Notes under the pieces: generated by a model
Database searches by the model: none
What the model saw: the letters and a program-made list of their open reading frames with translations, nothing else
Told to the model about the DNA's origin: nothing
From: Candidatus Dormiibacterota bacterium
Lineage (GTDB): Bacteria; Chloroflexota; Dormibacteria; Aeolococcales; Bog-877
Assembly (NCBI GenBank): GCA_027313505.1
Contig: DAHVDN010000004.1
Location: forward strand, 27,716-91,715
Direction of reading: 5' to 3'
Length of the DNA stretch: 64,000 bases
Shown: in pieces, positions 14,007-24,517 of the stretch
How positions within the stretch are numbered: the first letter of the stretch is position 1
Layout: every line of letters starts with the position of its first letter
Position numbers and translations under genes: made by a program

Positions 14007-15002
14007 TCAGCTCCCCTCCTGTCGAGGGCCCAACAGCCGCTGTATGTTCCCGCTCAACAGAAGACGACGATCATCAGAGGACATCTCGGTGTCCGCAATA
14101 GCCCGCAGGATGTCGCGCGTCCAGGTCTCACCGTCCGCCGAACCCATGGGAAAGTCGGTTCCGAACATCACGTGGTGCGGGCCAAAGTAGTCCAACCCGC
14201 ACCGCAGGGTGGCCGGACTGTAACTGATCGCGGTGTCGTTGTAGAAGCGCCGCAGATAGTCACCTACCGGAGCCGTGAGTTCGACCGCGGCTCCCCCCGT
14301 AAGCTGCTTGGCCCGGTACTCGGCAATCTCATGGTCAAAGGCATCCAGTCGGGCACCGAAGTAAGGGATCATGCCTCCTAGGTGATGGGTCACGATCTTC
14401 AACTCTGGGAAGCGCTCCATGACCCCGCCGTAGACCAACCTCATCATCGCCAGCGAGGTGTCGAACGGCCACCCCAGGCTCCGATCCAAAAGGGACTCCT
14501 TGATCCATGGGTAGAGGTATGAAGTGTGTTGCGGGTGAATCCAAAGGGGCAAACCGCGACGCTCGGCCTCCTCGTAGAGCGGCCACATTTCACTGGCGTC
14601 CAACGGCTGGCTCTCGACATTGGAGAAGATCTCAGCTCCCACCAGGCCCAGCTCATCCCAGGCGAATTGAAGCTCAGAAAGGATTCGGTCGTCGCAGGCC
14701 GGGGCTACTGCCGTTCCAACAAATCTGTTGGGGTATTCGGCGACCATGGCGGCGATCCCAAGGTGGGCCTCCCGCATCATCCGGTACATCACATCGCGAG
14801 GCATGCCCAGCCACATGGGGGGCCGAACCAGGACCAGGACCTGAACGTCGATCCCCACCTCGTCCATGAATCTGACTCGTTTCGAGGCGTCACGCAGGTA
14901 GGGTCGGCTGTCGAGGGCTGCCGCTTCGGCACTCGGATAGTCGCGGTTGATCGCCTCGATGAGACGCTCCGGGCACACATGAGAGTAGGCGTCAATGATC
15001 AA
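14007..15002 (-). CDS. Amidohydrolase-2 family hydrolase or (de)carboxylase, paralogous to the enzyme at 10455..11285
   Basis: Motifs HHLGGMIPYF and FGTDFPM are present. The track start at 15215 would overlap the upstream ligase by 216 nt. A TTG at about 15002 with AAGGAGGA 9 nt upstream overlaps the ligase stop (TTGA). This indicates translational coupling. Confidence 0.7.
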   Translation of the reverse strand: MIIDAYSHVCPERLIEAINRDYPSAEAAALDSRPYLRDASKRVRFMDEVGIDVQVLVLVRPPMWLGMPRDVMYRMMREAHLGIAAMVAEYPNRFVGTAVAPACDDRILSELQFAWDELGLVGAEIFSNVESQPLDASEMWPLYEEAERRGLPLWIHPQHTSYLYPWIKESLLDRSLGWPFDTSLAMMRLVYGGVMERFPELKIVTHHLGGMIPYFGARLDAFDHEIAEYRAKQLTGGAAVELTAPVGDYLRRFYNDTAISYSPATLRCGLDYFGPHHVMFGTDFPMGSADGETWTRDILRAIADTEMSSDDRRLLLSGNIQRLLGPRQEGS

Positions 15003-16660
15003 TTTGGGAAATCCTCCTTGGAATCTCGGACCAGCCCGGCGGCGCGTCGGGCCAGAACGCTCTTCTGTACCTTGCCAAAGGGAGAGAGAGGTAGCTCGCC
15101 CACAAGTACCAACCTCTCTGGATGCTTGAATCGCGCCAGTCCTCGCGCGGTCAGCAGCGCGGTCAGCTGATCCAAAGTGGGAGCGCTGCCACTCGGCGGC
15201 TGGACAAAGGCACACATCCGCTCTCCGAGGATCCGGTCAGGGATGGGCACACACGCCACGTTCGCGACCAGAGGATGAGTGAGGAGCATCTCCTCGACCT
15301 CTTCGGCGCTGATCTTCTCTCCACCGCGGTTTACCAGATCCGTCTTGCGCCCCTCGACCACGTAGTTTCCCGAGGGATGCTGACGCAGAAGGTCTCCTGA
15401 CCGATAGAACCCGTCATTGGTGAAAGCGCGGCAATTCACTTCGGGTGCCCGATAGTATCCGCGTAGGGTGTACGGCCCGCGACAAAGGAGCTCGCCCACC
15501 TCGCCCCAGCCGACTTCACCTCCGTCCTCAGCGACCAACTTAACCTCATCGTCAGGGCAGATAGGTCGGCCGACTGTCTCCAACCTGATCTCTGGGGGAT
15601 CATCCAGCCGGGTGATCATCAGCAGCCCTTCGGCCATCCCGAAGACCTCTTGCACCTTGGCACCGACAAACGCGGCCTCGATACGCACCTTGGTCTCACG
15701 CTGAAACTTCTGCCCTCCGCTGTTGATTACTCGGACCGACTCCAGCCGATGAGCGGGTATTGGTCCGTCATCAAGCCAGGAGAGGGCCATAGCGGGGACG
15801 ATTTCCAGGTGAGTAACCCCTTCGCGCTCGATCAGAGGCAGAGCCACTCCAGATCTAGGGCTCGGACACATCACCGCCGTGCCCCCGTGGAGGAAGAAGC
15901 CCTGGATCCCGGGCGATGCCAGCGGGAAATTGTGGCCGATGGGAGCGCTCACCAGCAACCTGTCTCCTTCCCTGATGTCATTCACCGAGGCGATGAGGCG
16001 ACTGTTGTAGAGGTAGTCGTTGTGAGTGCGGGGAATTACCTTCGGTATCCCTGTTGTTCCCCCGGACAGCTGAAAGACGCAAGGCTCGTCGGGGTCGACC
16101 TCAAGTCGGCGCAACTGGTCGATGGTGGCGGTGGGCTGCCGAACCAGGAGGTCGCGAATCCCCACGCACCCCGGTTGATCCGGCGCGGCACCAGCGACCA
16201 GCACCAATCGCAGGGTGGGGTCGCTCGCCACCATCCGAGCCGCCAATTCCAGACAATCGAATCCTGGGTAGCTGGGTGGCGCGGCGTAGCCAACCGCCCC
16301 CACGAAGCTGACGTAGTGCGCGATCTCATGCTCACGATGACCCGGCAGCGCCAGCAGCGGAATCGCCCCCAGCCGTTGCAGGGCAAAGTACAGGAGAACG
16401 AAGTCCAGGCGGTTGGGAAGTTGGACAACGACGCGATCCAGCGGCCCGATCCCCAGATCCATAAGGTTCAGCGCCATTCGCTCCACCCCACCGCCAAGGT
16501 CCGCAAAGCTCCAGCGTTGGTCACCATCGACGACCGCCAGTCGATCCGCAAACCTGAGGAAGCAGGAGTGAAAGACCTCTCCGAGTGGGCGGTCCTCCCA
16601 ATATCCCCTCCGCCGGTATCGGGTGGCCAGCTCCCGAGGAATCGGAATCACCCCTTCCAT
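14999..16660 (-). CDS. Second DhbE/EntE-like aryl-AMP ligase, paralogous to 11334..12905
   Basis: Motifs YRRRGYWED and GGTTGIPKVIPRTHNDYLYN are present. I chose the start at MEGVIPIP (about 16660), immediately after the upstream gene stop at 16663. Confidence 0.8.
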   Translation of the reverse strand: MEGVIPIPRELATRYRRRGYWEDRPLGEVFHSCFLRFADRLAVVDGDQRWSFADLGGGVERMALNLMDLGIGPLDRVVVQLPNRLDFVLLYFALQRLGAIPLLALPGHREHEIAHYVSFVGAVGYAAPPSYPGFDCLELAARMVASDPTLRLVLVAGAAPDQPGCVGIRDLLVRQPTATIDQLRRLEVDPDEPCVFQLSGGTTGIPKVIPRTHNDYLYNSRLIASVNDIREGDRLLVSAPIGHNFPLASPGIQGFFLHGGTAVMCPSPRSGVALPLIEREGVTHLEIVPAMALSWLDDGPIPAHRLESVRVINSGGQKFQRETKVRIEAAFVGAKVQEVFGMAEGLLMITRLDDPPEIRLETVGRPICPDDEVKLVAEDGGEVGWGEVGELLCRGPYTLRGYYRAPEVNCRAFTNDGFYRSGDLLRQHPSGNYVVEGRKTDLVNRGGEKISAEEVEEMLLTHPLVANVACVPIPDRILGERMCAFVQPPSGSAPTLDQLTALLTARGLARFKHPERLVLVGELPLSPFGKVQKSVLARRAAGLVRDSKEDFPN

Positions 16661-16662
16661 GT

Positions 16663-23146: not shown

Positions 23147-23230
23147 AGATTACTCCTGTCCCTGATGGCCGATATAGAGAGGGGCCGCCGGCCCAGGGCC
23201 GGTGACCCCTCTCCCGCTATTGCGAAAGAC

Positions 23231-24517
23231 CTACTGCAGCAGTTGGGAGACCTGAGCTCCCGAGATCACCTTGACCGAGTTCGACTGGGTGGCACTTGTG
23301 AACACCACTACCGCAAACTGCCCGGCAAAGTTGTGGTACTTGTTGAAGGTGACGGGACCGACCACACCGACGTACTGGATCGTCTTGCCTTGACTCAACG
23401 CCTTCTTGCCCGCGGCGAAGGTATGCACCACCACATCGCCCGGCTTGCTCGACACAATCTGTTGGACATAGGAGTTGTACACCGAGCCCGTGGTGCTCTT
23501 GGACGCCAACATCGCCAAGGCGAGAATGTTCATGCCGTCGTAGGCGGAGGCGGGCGGGCCAACTGTGGTGATGACCCCGGCTATCGCGTGGGTCTTGGGA
23601 TTCTCTTCCATCGCTTGCTTGTACGCGTAGAAGGCGGGAGTGGTGTTGCTGAAGTACGATCCCACCAAGTACATGTCGTGGAGGAGGTAGCTGGCTCCCA
23701 CCGCCTTGGCGACCGCGTTGTAAAAGTCCGGCGTCAACGAGTCTGTAGCCGTGATCATTGGCGGCATACTGCCGTTGTTGAGCTGGGAATAGTTGGCCAG
23801 GAATGTGGCCGTAGTCTGCGGGTCCGCTGAGAAGATCAATGCCTGGGGATGACCGCTGAGCACCGTCGACACCACACTCGAGTAGGAGCTGGCATCGGCC
23901 GGAATGGTCAGGTTACTGGTGATCTTGAGTCCCAGCTTGGGAGCAGCCGAAAGAATTCCTGGCAGATTCCCCTGGGAACCGATGTTGTTCTCGAAGATCA
24001 CGGCAACCTTCTTGAATCCCTTGTCGGCCGCCCACGCCGCGAAGGCGGCGCCGTTGGCGTTATCGGCGGGGGTGAGCCGCCAGAAGTACTTGTCTGAGGT
24101 GCGGTTGAAGGCGACCAAGCCGTTGGTGGTGACGAACGGGATGCCCGCCTTGTTGATGATGGGGACCGTCGTGGCAGCGGTGTTGCTCTCCAGGCCCAGG
24201 GCCATGTCGAAGTTGGATATTGTGGCAACCGCTCGGGTCACGTTGGGAACCGCGTCAGCGGCATCCCCGGTATCGTCGACCGGAGTGCACTGAAATTTGT
24301 GGCCCAGAACCCCACCCGCGTTGTTGATCAGCAGGGCCGACGCTTCGCAGGGAGCGGACAGCAGGGTCCCGAATTCCGCGGCCGGCCCGCTGAACGGTGC
24401 TACCACTCCGACGTTTATAGGACCCGGCTTTGCCGGCTTGCCGGCGGGGGTGCTCGCTCCACAGCCCGCGAGGACTGCCAGCAGGCCCGCTGCCGGAATG
24501 ACCAGGGCTCGACGCAT
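23231..24517 (-). CDS. Liv-family (type I periplasmic binding fold) ABC substrate-binding lipoprotein
   Basis: The lipoprotein signal MRRALVIPAAGLLAVLAGCGAS has an LAGC lipobox. The body is LivJ/K-like. The track start at 24769 is too long. Confidence 0.8.
   Translation of the reverse strand: MRRALVIPAAGLLAVLAGCGASTPAGKPAKPGPINVGVVAPFSGPAAEFGTLLSAPCEASALLINNAGGVLGHKFQCTPVDDTGDAADAVPNVTRAVATISNFDMALGLESNTAATTVPIINKAGIPFVTTNGLVAFNRTSDKYFWRLTPADNANGAAFAAWAADKGFKKVAVIFENNIGSQGNLPGILSAAPKLGLKITSNLTIPADASSYSSVVSTVLSGHPQALIFSADPQTTATFLANYSQLNNGSMPPMITATDSLTPDFYNAVAKAVGASYLLHDMYLVGSYFSNTTPAFYAYKQAMEENPKTHAIAGVITTVGPPASAYDGMNILALAMLASKSTTGSVYNSYVQQIVSSKPGDVVVHTFAAGKKALSQGKTIQYVGVVGPVTFNKYHNFAGQFAVVVFTSATQSNSVKVISGAQVSQLLQ

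Follow-up and report, generated by a model that had tools for sequence, protein, structure and literature searches.

The 64-kb stretch considered here (64,000 nt of contig DAHVDN010000004.1 from a Candidatus Dormiibacterota bacterium, called the window below and the source of all coordinates unless a related locus is named) carries a row of nine minus-strand genes that runs from 24517 down to 14007. Together they encode a Liv-type ATP-binding cassette (ABC) importer, a thiamine diphosphate (ThDP) enzyme, an LLM oxidoreductase, a DhbE-like ligase (LIG1) and an amidohydrolase (AH2), and the open reading frame (ORF) listing and translations confirm all nine. The functional unit runs past 14007 to about 6700, taking in a TrmB-family regulator, a second DhbE-like ligase (LIG2), a short-chain dehydrogenase/reductase (SDR), a second amidohydrolase (AHb), an OsmC-like gene and a CoxL-type enzyme. 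The window thus holds two parallel, non-identical modules, one around each ligase. With middling confidence, the nine-gene region is read here as the larger half of a conserved regulon for catabolism in a Dormibacterota bacterium. The features are as follows.

24689-24731, minus strand: promoter/operator block; the palindrome CCTACTCAAGTAGG lies at 24698-24711, directly downstream of a -10-like hexamer, TATGGT
23231-24517, minus strand: lipoprotein substrate-binding protein (SBP; Peripla_BP_6) of a HAAT/Liv-type ABC importer, with lipobox VLAGC
22259-23146, minus strand: LivH-like permease (PF02653, 122 bits; under the LivH and UrtB equivalog cut-offs)
21208-22221, minus strand: LivM-like permease (PF02653, 89 bits), its start set for 337 aa according to the gene call of the syntenic contig L001
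20375-21211, minus strand: LivG-like ATPase (PF00005), overlapping the LivM gene by 4 nt
19612-20394, minus strand: LivF-like ATPase (PF00005), its stop overlapping the ThDP enzyme start (ATGA)
17963-19615, minus strand: benzoylformate-decarboxylase-like ThDP enzyme with three ThDP domains (Pfam)
17689-17962, minus strand: 274-nt gap between the ThDP enzyme and LLM genes, a site occupied in relatives by a CocE/NonD (Peptidase_S15) gene
16663-17688, minus strand: LLM oxidoreductase of F420-dependent type (PF00296, 233 bits)
14999-16660, minus strand: LIG1, DhbE-like ligase of clade A, with AMP-binding and C-terminal domains (Pfam)
14007-15002, minus strand: AH2, ACMSD/LigW-like amidohydrolase-2 (PF04909, 96 bits), with a TTGA overlap with LIG1
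13015-13869, minus strand: TrmB-family transcriptional regulator (PF01978)
12982-12999, minus strand: second copy of the palindrome, CCTACCGCAGTCGGTAGG, upstream of LIG2
11334-12905, minus strand: LIG2, second DhbE-like ligase, of clade B (DHB_AMP_lig, 488 bits)
10455-11285, plus strand: AHb, second PF04909 amidohydrolase (183 bits)
9642-10406, plus strand: SDR oxidoreductase (Pfam adh_short)
9127-9645, plus strand: OsmC-like gene with an in-frame TGA (PF02566, 49 bits, the match spanning the TGA)
6794-9091, plus strand: large subunit of a CoxL-type molybdopterin hydroxylase/aldehyde oxidoreductase, syntenic in the related loci L005-L007
6706-6727, plus strand: relaxed copy of the palindrome, CCTACCCACCGCCGTCGGTAGC, with one mismatch, upstream of CoxL

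After gene starts had been refined against the gene calls of L001, the junctions along the row measure +84 nt (SBP-LivH), +37 (LivH-LivM), -4 (LivM-LivG), -20 (LivG-LivF), -4 (LivF-ThDP, ATGA), +274 (ThDP-LLM), +2 (LLM-LIG1) and -4 (LIG1-AH2, TTGA). The sequence-only reading of this DNA had described nine head-to-tail genes with ATGA and TTGA overlaps at the LivF-ThDP and ligase-amidohydrolase junctions; these lie where it placed them, and Pfam agrees with its family label for each protein. Its model of a single operon spanning 24517-14007 stands as to genes and overlaps but fails at the boundaries, since the 274-nt gap interrupts the row between the ThDP enzyme and the LLM and since TrmB, LIG2, SDR, AHb, OsmC and CoxL were left out. 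In this second part of the unit, the plus-strand CoxL, OsmC-like, SDR and AHb genes converge on the minus-strand TrmB and LIG2 genes. None of the nine proteins reaches a curated NCBIfam equivalog cut-off; all five ABC components, the ThDP enzyme, the LLM and LIG1 score under theirs.

The arrangement is conserved. By their source names, the closest homologues belong to Candidatus Dormibacteria. The full nine-gene order is repeated in the Dormibacterota metagenome-assembled genome (MAG) L001, whose ligase is 82% identical, and L005-L007 and L088 have the same order except that an S15 hydrolase gene separates the ThDP enzyme from the LLM. The whole extended arrangement recurs in Dormibacterota MAGs L001, L005-L007, L087 and L088, and sub-modules of the cluster recur across phyla. 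A horizontal island was also considered and is ruled out by uniform GC content, a lack of mobile genes and the same insertion site on the MPG-pheST side in L001.

A shared operator ties the parts of the cluster together. When the 640 nt ahead of the SBP gene were aligned with L001, a perfectly conserved block emerged; the block at 24689-24731 is 88-93% identical in L001, L005, L006, L087 and L088. The block carries the palindrome CCTACTCAAGTAGG 181 nt upstream of the SBP ATG, and in the same five loci the palindrome precedes the SBP gene by about 200 nt. As the spacer of the operator varies in length, a 9-mer search of intergenic regions did not pick it up; the gapped pattern CCTAC-N(0-12)-GTAGG found it and matches twice in 64 kb, against 0.22 matches expected, both times in promoter regions of the cluster. 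Exact copies precede CoxL in L005-L007, and L087 has the palindrome ahead of its LIG2 gene. Its presence upstream of SBP, LIG2 and, with one mismatch, CoxL supports one regulon with a common operator. The ThDP-LLM gap contains no operator palindrome, which favours, without proving, read-through of all nine genes from the predicted SBP promoter. The TrmB gene lies beside the ligase in 13 of the 87 ligase contexts described below, and also in L087 and L089; as the candidate regulator, its product probably controls the regulon. The one Rfam match is a tRNA-Val; the SBP leader has none.

Farther upstream, just downstream of the methylpurine-DNA glycosylase gene, some 210 nt within 24925-25158 are 87% identical to L001, while nearby non-coding sequence is far less conserved. 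This stretch has no long ORF in any frame, no Rfam match and a folding energy no better than that of shuffled sequence; it could be a small RNA or a 3' untranslated region element.

The importer comprises one SBP, two BPD_transp_2 permeases and two ATPases, which are all five components of a Liv-type system. The permeases and ATPases score best on Liv and Urt models (the LivF-like ATPase reaches 182 bits with UrtE and 171 bits with LivF, both under cut-off), and LivK, LivJ and a leucine-bound SBP are among the top Foldseek matches, as would be expected of an ordinary leucine-isoleucine-valine (LIV) uptake operon that happens to lie beside unrelated enzymes, with the ThDP enzyme a biosynthetic one of acetolactate-synthase (ALS) type. 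Such an account is very unlikely. The component scores are 46 bits against a cut-off of 477 for LivJ/K, 87 against 379 for LivH, 88 against 366 for LivM, 224 against 362 for LivG and 171 against 441 for LivF, so that all five fall short, and the ThDP enzyme scores 288 bits with the benzoylformate decarboxylase (BFDC) model, above any ALS model (at most 215). The operator ahead of the SBP gene is shared with LIG2 and CoxL, and from genome to genome the SBP family stays in the company of the ligase and amidohydrolase set even where other neighbours differ. Three other genomes, whose outer neighbours are not the same, encode homologues of the SBP (itself matching PF13458 at 115 bits) with 63-78% identity; each of these loci has permeases, ATPases, a ligase, an Amidohydro_2 protein and TrmB, two of the three have the ThDP enzyme, and all three have the S15 hydrolase. 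Because the SBP homologues travel with the same enzyme set across differing neighbourhoods, the importer belongs to the system, and the coupling of transporter to enzymes in the sequence-only reading is borne out by homologues that are always accompanied by ligase, Amidohydro_2 and TrmB genes.

That reading had looked to the SBP structure to separate amino-acid from aromatic-acid ligands. The AlphaFold2 model (pLDDT 87) resembles binders of both kinds: its Foldseek neighbours include the leucine binders 3TD9, 4N0Q and 4GNR, with LivK/LivJ among the top matches, and the Rhodopseudomonas palustris binders of 4-hydroxybenzoate, phenylpyruvate and p-coumarate (4EVS, 4EVQ, 4DQD and 4F8J). A separate observation concerns the 84-nt spacer between the SBP and LivH genes, which contains a strong GC-rich hairpin (GGGAGAGGGG...CCCCTCTCT) at about 23176-23215 on the minus strand. 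Hairpins in such spacers often stabilise or attenuate the SBP part of ABC operon transcripts.

The ThDP enzyme has BFDC (NF005485) as its best NCBIfam model (287.7 bits against a cut-off of 493; ALS models reach at most 215 bits) and benzoylformate decarboxylases as its best PDB matches, and it keeps the equivalents of BFDC Ser26, Glu28, Glu47 and His70. An exact-sequence lookup of the enzyme gave no match. In L005-L007, L029, L087 and L088, a CocE/NonD S15 hydrolase gene lies between the ThDP enzyme and the LLM or amidohydrolase (7216-8988 in L006, 16589-18355 in L087 and 16549-18300 in L088). A tblastn search found no remnant of it in the 274-nt gap of the window, nor in L001, and the gap sequence is poorly conserved between the two; on these comparisons the S15 hydrolase gene is apparently lost in both genomes.

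The position of this hydrolase in so many relatives invites a reading in which the system handles conjugates: an aroyl ester or N-aroyl amino acid would be cleaved by CocE/NonD and the amidohydrolases, or the ligases would be ATP-dependent amide-bond synthetases. A carboxylesterase in an analogous place on betaproteobacterial plasmids fits this, as do Liv-type SBPs, which often bind amino-acid-like ligands. We consider amide or ester conjugates quite unlikely nonetheless, given that the window and L001 keep everything else without the hydrolase, that crotonase and thiolase neighbours in related loci point to CoA esters, and that there is no sign of an amine co-substrate.

Both ligases resemble enzymes that activate aryl acids for siderophores. 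LIG1 and LIG2, which are 53% identical to each other, match the DHB_AMP_lig model (TIGR02275) at 498.8 and 488.1 bits and do not reach its cut-off of 723.55; the best PDB match of LIG1 is the salicylate-AMP ligase CahJ, followed by DhbE, PchD and EntE. A scan of one genome per GTDB species yielded 80 loci with ligases 47-74% identical to LIG1, hosted by Dormibacterota, Chloroflexota, Actinomycetota, Binatia and Alpha-, Beta- and "Delta"-proteobacteria, cultured strains included. The best named family, (2,3-dihydroxybenzoyl)adenylate synthase, and the best structures (CahJ, DhbE, PchD and EntE) might suggest synthesis of a siderophore or an aryl-capped nonribosomal peptide, in which the ligases would be true DhbE/EntE enzymes loading a carrier protein encoded elsewhere. 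Against this stand the scores (499 and 488 bits where 724 is required) and an identity to DhbE and CahJ of 44-48%, compared with 47-74% inside the family. No aryl carrier protein (ArCP), isochorismatase, isochorismate synthase or nonribosomal peptide synthetase (NRPS) gene occurs anywhere in the 64-kb window; none of the ArCP, NRPS or isochorismate genes occurs in nine Pfam-annotated and two record-annotated loci either, the 80 genome loci not having been scanned for them. The sequence-only reading had described DhbE-like ligases without a carrier or NRPS partner, and it was right for the window and for these 11 annotated loci.

The company that the ligases keep is catabolic. Plasmids of Sphaerotilus and Acidovorax carry a clade B locus in the order LysR, TctC, SDR, ligase, amidohydrolase, carboxylesterase, PcaF-type thiolase and two crotonases. 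Extra families recur across the 80 loci, among them crotonase (ECH) in 18 and thiolase in 13, together with TctC, TRAP, MFS, NMT1 and Liv uptake systems, LysR, TetR and TrmB regulators, and S15 and FAA hydrolases; in the clustering of these neighbour families, a GC1>GC2 filter only partly removed antisense shadow ORFs from high-GC loci. L002, an Acidimicrobiia-like contig, has a Rieske dioxygenase, a LigB extradiol dioxygenase, a tautomerase and an aldolase. Neighbours of these kinds (uptake transporters, crotonases, thiolases and ring-cleavage dioxygenases), combined with the missing carrier and NRPS genes, argue against siderophore synthesis, which we regard as extremely improbable. In support of the sequence-only reading, related loci have catabolic contexts, in the form of crotonases, thiolase, Rieske and LigB dioxygenases and LysR, MarR and TrmB regulators. 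LIG1 and LIG2, carrier-independent ligases predicted to adenylate aryl acids, are presumably CoA ligases; given the lack of carrier genes and the crotonases and thiolases found near the related ligases, their likely product is a CoA thioester.

The substrate pockets also depart from DhbE. Read at DhbE positions 234-338 from the tool alignment, the pocket of LIG1 and clade A is HNFAS-EA-N-G-Q-V-G-L-L-M and that of LIG2 is HNMAC-AA-Q-G-Q-N-G-T-L-F, with clade B as a whole following HN[L/M/Y]AC-xA-Q-G-Q-N-G-x-L-[M/F]. At the 2,3-dihydroxybenzoate (DHB) pocket positions Asn235, Tyr236, Ser240, Val329 and Val337, LIG1 has N, F, S, V and L, and LIG2 has N, M, C, N and L. Relative to DhbE, A308Q is present in all members, V329N in clade B, and Glu277 and Asn304 in clade A; position 338, which varies across the family, reads N338M in LIG1 and N338F in LIG2. 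These substitutions (A308Q, V329N and N338M/F) are a further point against a siderophore role. His234-Asn235 is kept in both ligases, and Ser240 and Val329 are kept in LIG1 as well. The roles of the pocket residues have reportedly been worked out for DhbE by May et al. (2002), in which Asn235 is said to contact the ortho-hydroxyl. Retention of His234-Asn235 in both ligases and of Ser240 in LIG1 suggests that the substrate bears a hydroxyl or heteroatom in the position ortho (beta) to its carboxylate.

A ligase tree rooted on DhbE and CahJ as outgroups resolves two clades, A with 13 sequences including LIG1 and B with about 70 sequences including LIG2. Neighbours, found by searching the loci with window proteins, were tallied for 87 ligase contexts. 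Within 1.5 kb, ten of the 13 clade A ligases have an LLM homologue; the usual clade B neighbours over the same distance are an SDR and an AHb-type amidohydrolase. Of all 87 contexts, 62 have an adjacent SDR and 55 an adjacent AHb-type amidohydrolase, and 53 contain the complete trio of oxidoreductase, ligase and amidohydrolase. The same division holds for loci reached independently by way of the SBP or the LLM: L088, L090 and L091 carry a clade A ligase and an LLM, whereas L089 and two plasmid loci carry a clade B ligase and an SDR. A recent tandem duplication giving rise to LIG1 and LIG2 was considered and is ruled out by their different clades, pockets and partners; at only 53% identity, the two are therefore not recent duplicates.

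The clade A partner looks like an F420 enzyme. The top 17 NCBIfam matches of the LLM are all F420 LLM families (185 to 48 bits), while the best FMN family scores 44 bits; its best curated match, TIGR04024, stands at 184.6 bits against a cut-off of 345.4, and the protein is below every F420 subfamily cut-off. PDB matches are the F420 enzymes Mer, Fgd1 and fHMAD and one further protein named only "Luciferase family protein". Searching plasmids with the LLM gave no orthologue, the best identity being 36%. The sequence-only reading had joined this protein to the ThDP enzyme as an "unusual TPP plus LLM pair", which has to be given up: the LLM co-varies with ligase clade A and the ThDP gene is tied to livF and, in related genomes, also to the S15 hydrolase, so the LLM is the ligase's partner and not that of the ThDP enzyme.

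In two different alphaproteobacterial MAG contigs, L004 (1280-6729) and L091 (449-4533), complete sets of F420 biosynthesis genes (fno, cofE, cofD, cofC and cofGH) lie directly upstream of a clade A operon made up of an FAD monooxygenase, a VOC protein, the clade A ligase and the LLM. In L004 an IS110 transposase lies between the F420 biosynthesis set and the ligase-LLM operon. A review describes the role of F420 in such Proteobacteria as minor, niche-specific and unknown (PMC8498797). With fno and the cof genes directly beside it in these MAGs, the pair would, if the proposal is true, be a concrete role for F420. The proposal itself, unlikely and offered as speculation, is that clade A ligase and F420 LLM form a previously unrecognised unit in which an ATP-activated aromatic acid (acyl-AMP or acyl-CoA) would be reduced by F420H2. 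The reduction may be a dearomatising hydride addition to a hydroxy-aryl ring or a reduction of the activated carboxyl, and the PF04909 enzyme may then open or trim the product. We know of no characterised F420 LLM with an obligate genomic pairing to an aryl-acid ligase.

The PF04909 enzymes bear on what happens after activation. Four reaction types are known in this family, of which hydroxybenzoate (de)carboxylation is just one; others are carried out by hydratases, lactonases and C-C hydrolases. AH2 has no meaningful NCBIfam match, and its PDB matches are ACMSD (100 bits), LigW (84 bits), gamma-resorcylate decarboxylase (gamma-RSD; 80 bits) and LigY (32 bits). It keeps the equivalents of ACMSD His174, the catalytic His224 and Asp291. 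The only PDB relative of AHb is the uncharacterised protein BB4693 (3IRS); BB4693 was considered as an orthologue of the proteobacterial AHb and rejected at only 71 bits. Ligase and amidohydrolase genes are close neighbours, with a 4-nt overlap between LIG1 and AH2, LIG2 adjoining AHb, and the pairing present in 55 of 87 contexts. A similar arrangement is found in Rhodococcus, where CouL/CouO and HpeE/HpeF place an AMP-forming ligase beside an amidohydrolase-superfamily enzyme that cleaves an aryl-beta-ketoacyl-CoA; the cou pathway interposes an oxidoreductase and a hydratase between the ligase and CouO (PMC4737184, PMC9618137).

Following the sequence-only reading in its specific form, one could instead take AH2 as a reversible ortho-(de)carboxylase of a phenol/hydroxybenzoate pair (of 2,3-DHB, gamma-resorcylate or salicylate type), whose product the ligase would trap so that ATP pulls carboxylation. 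The nearest solved relatives of AH2 (ACMSD, LigW, gamma-RSD and the 2,3-DHB and salicylate decarboxylases) agree with this, as do the retained ACMSD His224 and metal ligands His174 and Asp291, the His234-Asn235 pair of both ligases with Ser240 and Val329 in LIG1, and the overlap of the AH2 and LIG1 genes. The reaction would leave the obligatory LLM or SDR partner and the crotonase and thiolase neighbours unexplained, however, and the minimal ligase-LLM units L004, L090 and L091 have no amidohydrolase. AH2 reaches just 43-80 bits against hydroxybenzoate decarboxylases. PF04909 includes hydratases, lactonases and C-C hydrolases as well, with LigY among the matches of AH2, and CouO uses a CoA ester (PMC4737184). 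An ortho-(de)carboxylase is thus unlikely, though far from negligible.

At the far end of the unit, CoxL (6794-9091) has no CoxS or CoxM gene adjacent to it in the window; in L087 (5833-9673), genes for CoxS, CoxM, XdhC, a MocA-like protein and CoxG stand divergently beside the orthologous SBP operon. With a CoxL-type enzyme in the set, N-heteroaromatic acids or an aldehyde intermediate stay under consideration. Next to it, the OsmC-like gene has an in-frame TGA at 9331-9333, exactly at the position of the first catalytic Cys of OsmC/Ohr. The TGA is kept in three other Dormibacterota MAGs (at about 17250 in L005, 17260 in L006 and 16010 in L007), whose flanking protein sequence is 71-72% identical, and a conserved hairpin, GGCGA-AGUUU-UCGCC, follows about 14 nt downstream. 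Codon and hairpin are a candidate selenocysteine codon and minimal selenocysteine insertion sequence (SECIS). The fold z-score is not significant, and the window contains no sel genes or tRNA-Sec. The OsmC-like stop overlaps the SDR start (TTGA), and ORF lists show only an antisense shadow ORF at this place.

Taken together, the parts suggest a pathway. The HAAT/Liv-type importer, whose identity and synteny with the enzymes are observed, would take up the compound. The BFDC-like ThDP enzyme, coupled to livF, would remove CO2 from a 2-oxo acid, as its family and four of five catalytic residues suggest. The two carrier-free DhbE-like ligases would then activate acids with ATP, presumably to CoA thioesters. 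Hydride transfer on the activated acid might follow, by the F420-type LLM in clade A or an NAD(P)-dependent SDR in clade B; the association is seen in the genomes, and the chemistry could be alcohol/ketone or ring/side-chain redox. By analogy with ACMSD/LigW, LigY and CouO/HpeF, AH2 and AHb would decarboxylate the product or hydrolyse a C-C or lactone bond. The CoxL-type Mo enzyme and the OsmC-like protein would belong to the same regulon. As substrate, a carboxylic acid of ortho-hydroxylated, aza-aromatic or cyclic beta-hydroxy type is the most likely, or else a 2-oxo-acid or ester precursor of one. The sequence-only reading, uptake and activation of an aromatic or other organic acid, is reasonable in general terms; its operon model, its boundaries and its TPP-LLM pair need correction, and the (de)carboxylase role that it gave the amidohydrolase is putative.

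Several observations weigh against this pathway. No enzyme of either trio is characterised. CoA as the acceptor is our inference, and the window itself has no crotonase or thiolase. It has no F420 biosynthesis (cof/fbi) genes either. The Foldseek neighbours of the SBP, at 13-19% identity, mix leucine and aromatic-acid binders about equally. The ThDP enzyme has Phe at the position of BFDC His281 and scores under the BFDC cut-off, and the N-terminal motif of AH2 is DAYSH, in which the first His of HxH, the first metal ligand, is missing or replaced. The gap interrupts the gene row, promoter and terminator consensus scans performed no better than on shuffled sequence, and the link between TrmB and the palindrome is drawn from position. 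Weighing these points, we see a regulon for CoA-dependent catabolism of an ortho-hydroxy or aza-aromatic acid, under one common regulator with TrmB as the candidate, as an even proposition.

If this catabolic reading is right, it has consequences for annotation and for physiology. Genome pipelines label these ligases "(2,3-dihydroxybenzoyl)adenylate synthase", a misannotation that suggests siderophore synthesis; the evidence instead places a large environmental ligase family in catabolism, without a carrier protein. The family forms a three-gene unit of oxidoreductase, ligase and PF04909 enzyme whose chemistry is open to testing. The protein families are all known, and the module and its F420 variant are uncharacterised; no publication describing a module of DhbE-type ligase, amidohydrolase and SDR was found in the literature searched. 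Replacement of the SDR by an F420-type LLM, while the ligase pocket changes, suggests that cofactor use and substrate evolve together. The pair would, if true, give F420 a physiological role in aerobic soil Proteobacteria, Chloroflexota and Dormibacterota. To our knowledge, Dormibacterota have no cultured representative; the cluster gives this phylum a capacity to catabolise organic acids, marked by an operator that can be recognised.

Elsewhere the window is occupied by housekeeping genes, which encode PheST, ThrRS, AlaRS, AspRS, HisRS, RecN, NAD kinase and others. Three further ORFs may be recorded. One of 534 aa (2090-3694, minus strand) fuses a DmsB/NrfC-type 4Fe-4S protein to an NrfD-type membrane subunit. 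Another (4769-6121, plus strand) is a metallo-beta-lactamase and rhodanese fusion that resembles persulfide dioxygenase. A third, of 594 aa (53841-55625, minus strand), has a coding-like GC3 of 0.76, adjoins an FtsA-like gene and has no Pfam match.

Among known systems, the DhbE/EntE/CahJ ligases (TIGR02275; PDB 1MD9, 5WM2) have the fold and ANL motifs in common with LIG1 and LIG2 at 44-48% identity, but the window ligases differ in their sub-cut-off score, their lack of a carrier or NRPS partner, their altered pocket and their catabolic context. The Sdg pathway of Streptomyces sp. WA46 proceeds through a salicylyl-AMP ligase to salicylyl-CoA and gentisyl-CoA (PMC4600096, citing Ishiyama 2004). 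It is a precedent in having a catabolic aryl-AMP ligase without a carrier protein and CoA-ester intermediates. Its next enzyme is a flavin hydroxylase, and it is not known to include an LLM, SDR, PF04909 enzyme, ThDP enzyme or Liv importer.

For uptake, the closest parallels are the R. palustris proteins RPA0668, RPA0985 and CouP (4EVQ, 4EVS, 4F8J and 4DQD), which have the type I periplasmic binding protein fold in common with the window SBP and are among its top Foldseek neighbours. These binders show that the Liv-type family can import aromatic acids and aryl-2-oxo acids. The window SBP is 15-17% identical to them and about 60 residues longer, and leucine binders score equally. MdlC, the BFDC of the mandelate pathway, has three ThDP domains and four catalytic residues in common with the window enzyme, but it sits with mandelate racemase and dehydrogenase genes, whereas the window ThDP gene sits in an ABC transporter operon. 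The LLM matches the profiles and structures of F420-dependent hydride transferases (Mer, Adf, Fgd, fHMAD and Npd). The CouL/CouO and HpeE/HpeF systems of hydroxycinnamate and acetovanillone catabolism are likened to the cluster by arrangement, namely the pairing of ligase and amidohydrolase genes; CouL and HpeE are 4CL- or Acs-type ligases, whereas those of the window are DhbE-like, and the cou and hpe pathways operate without an F420 enzyme.

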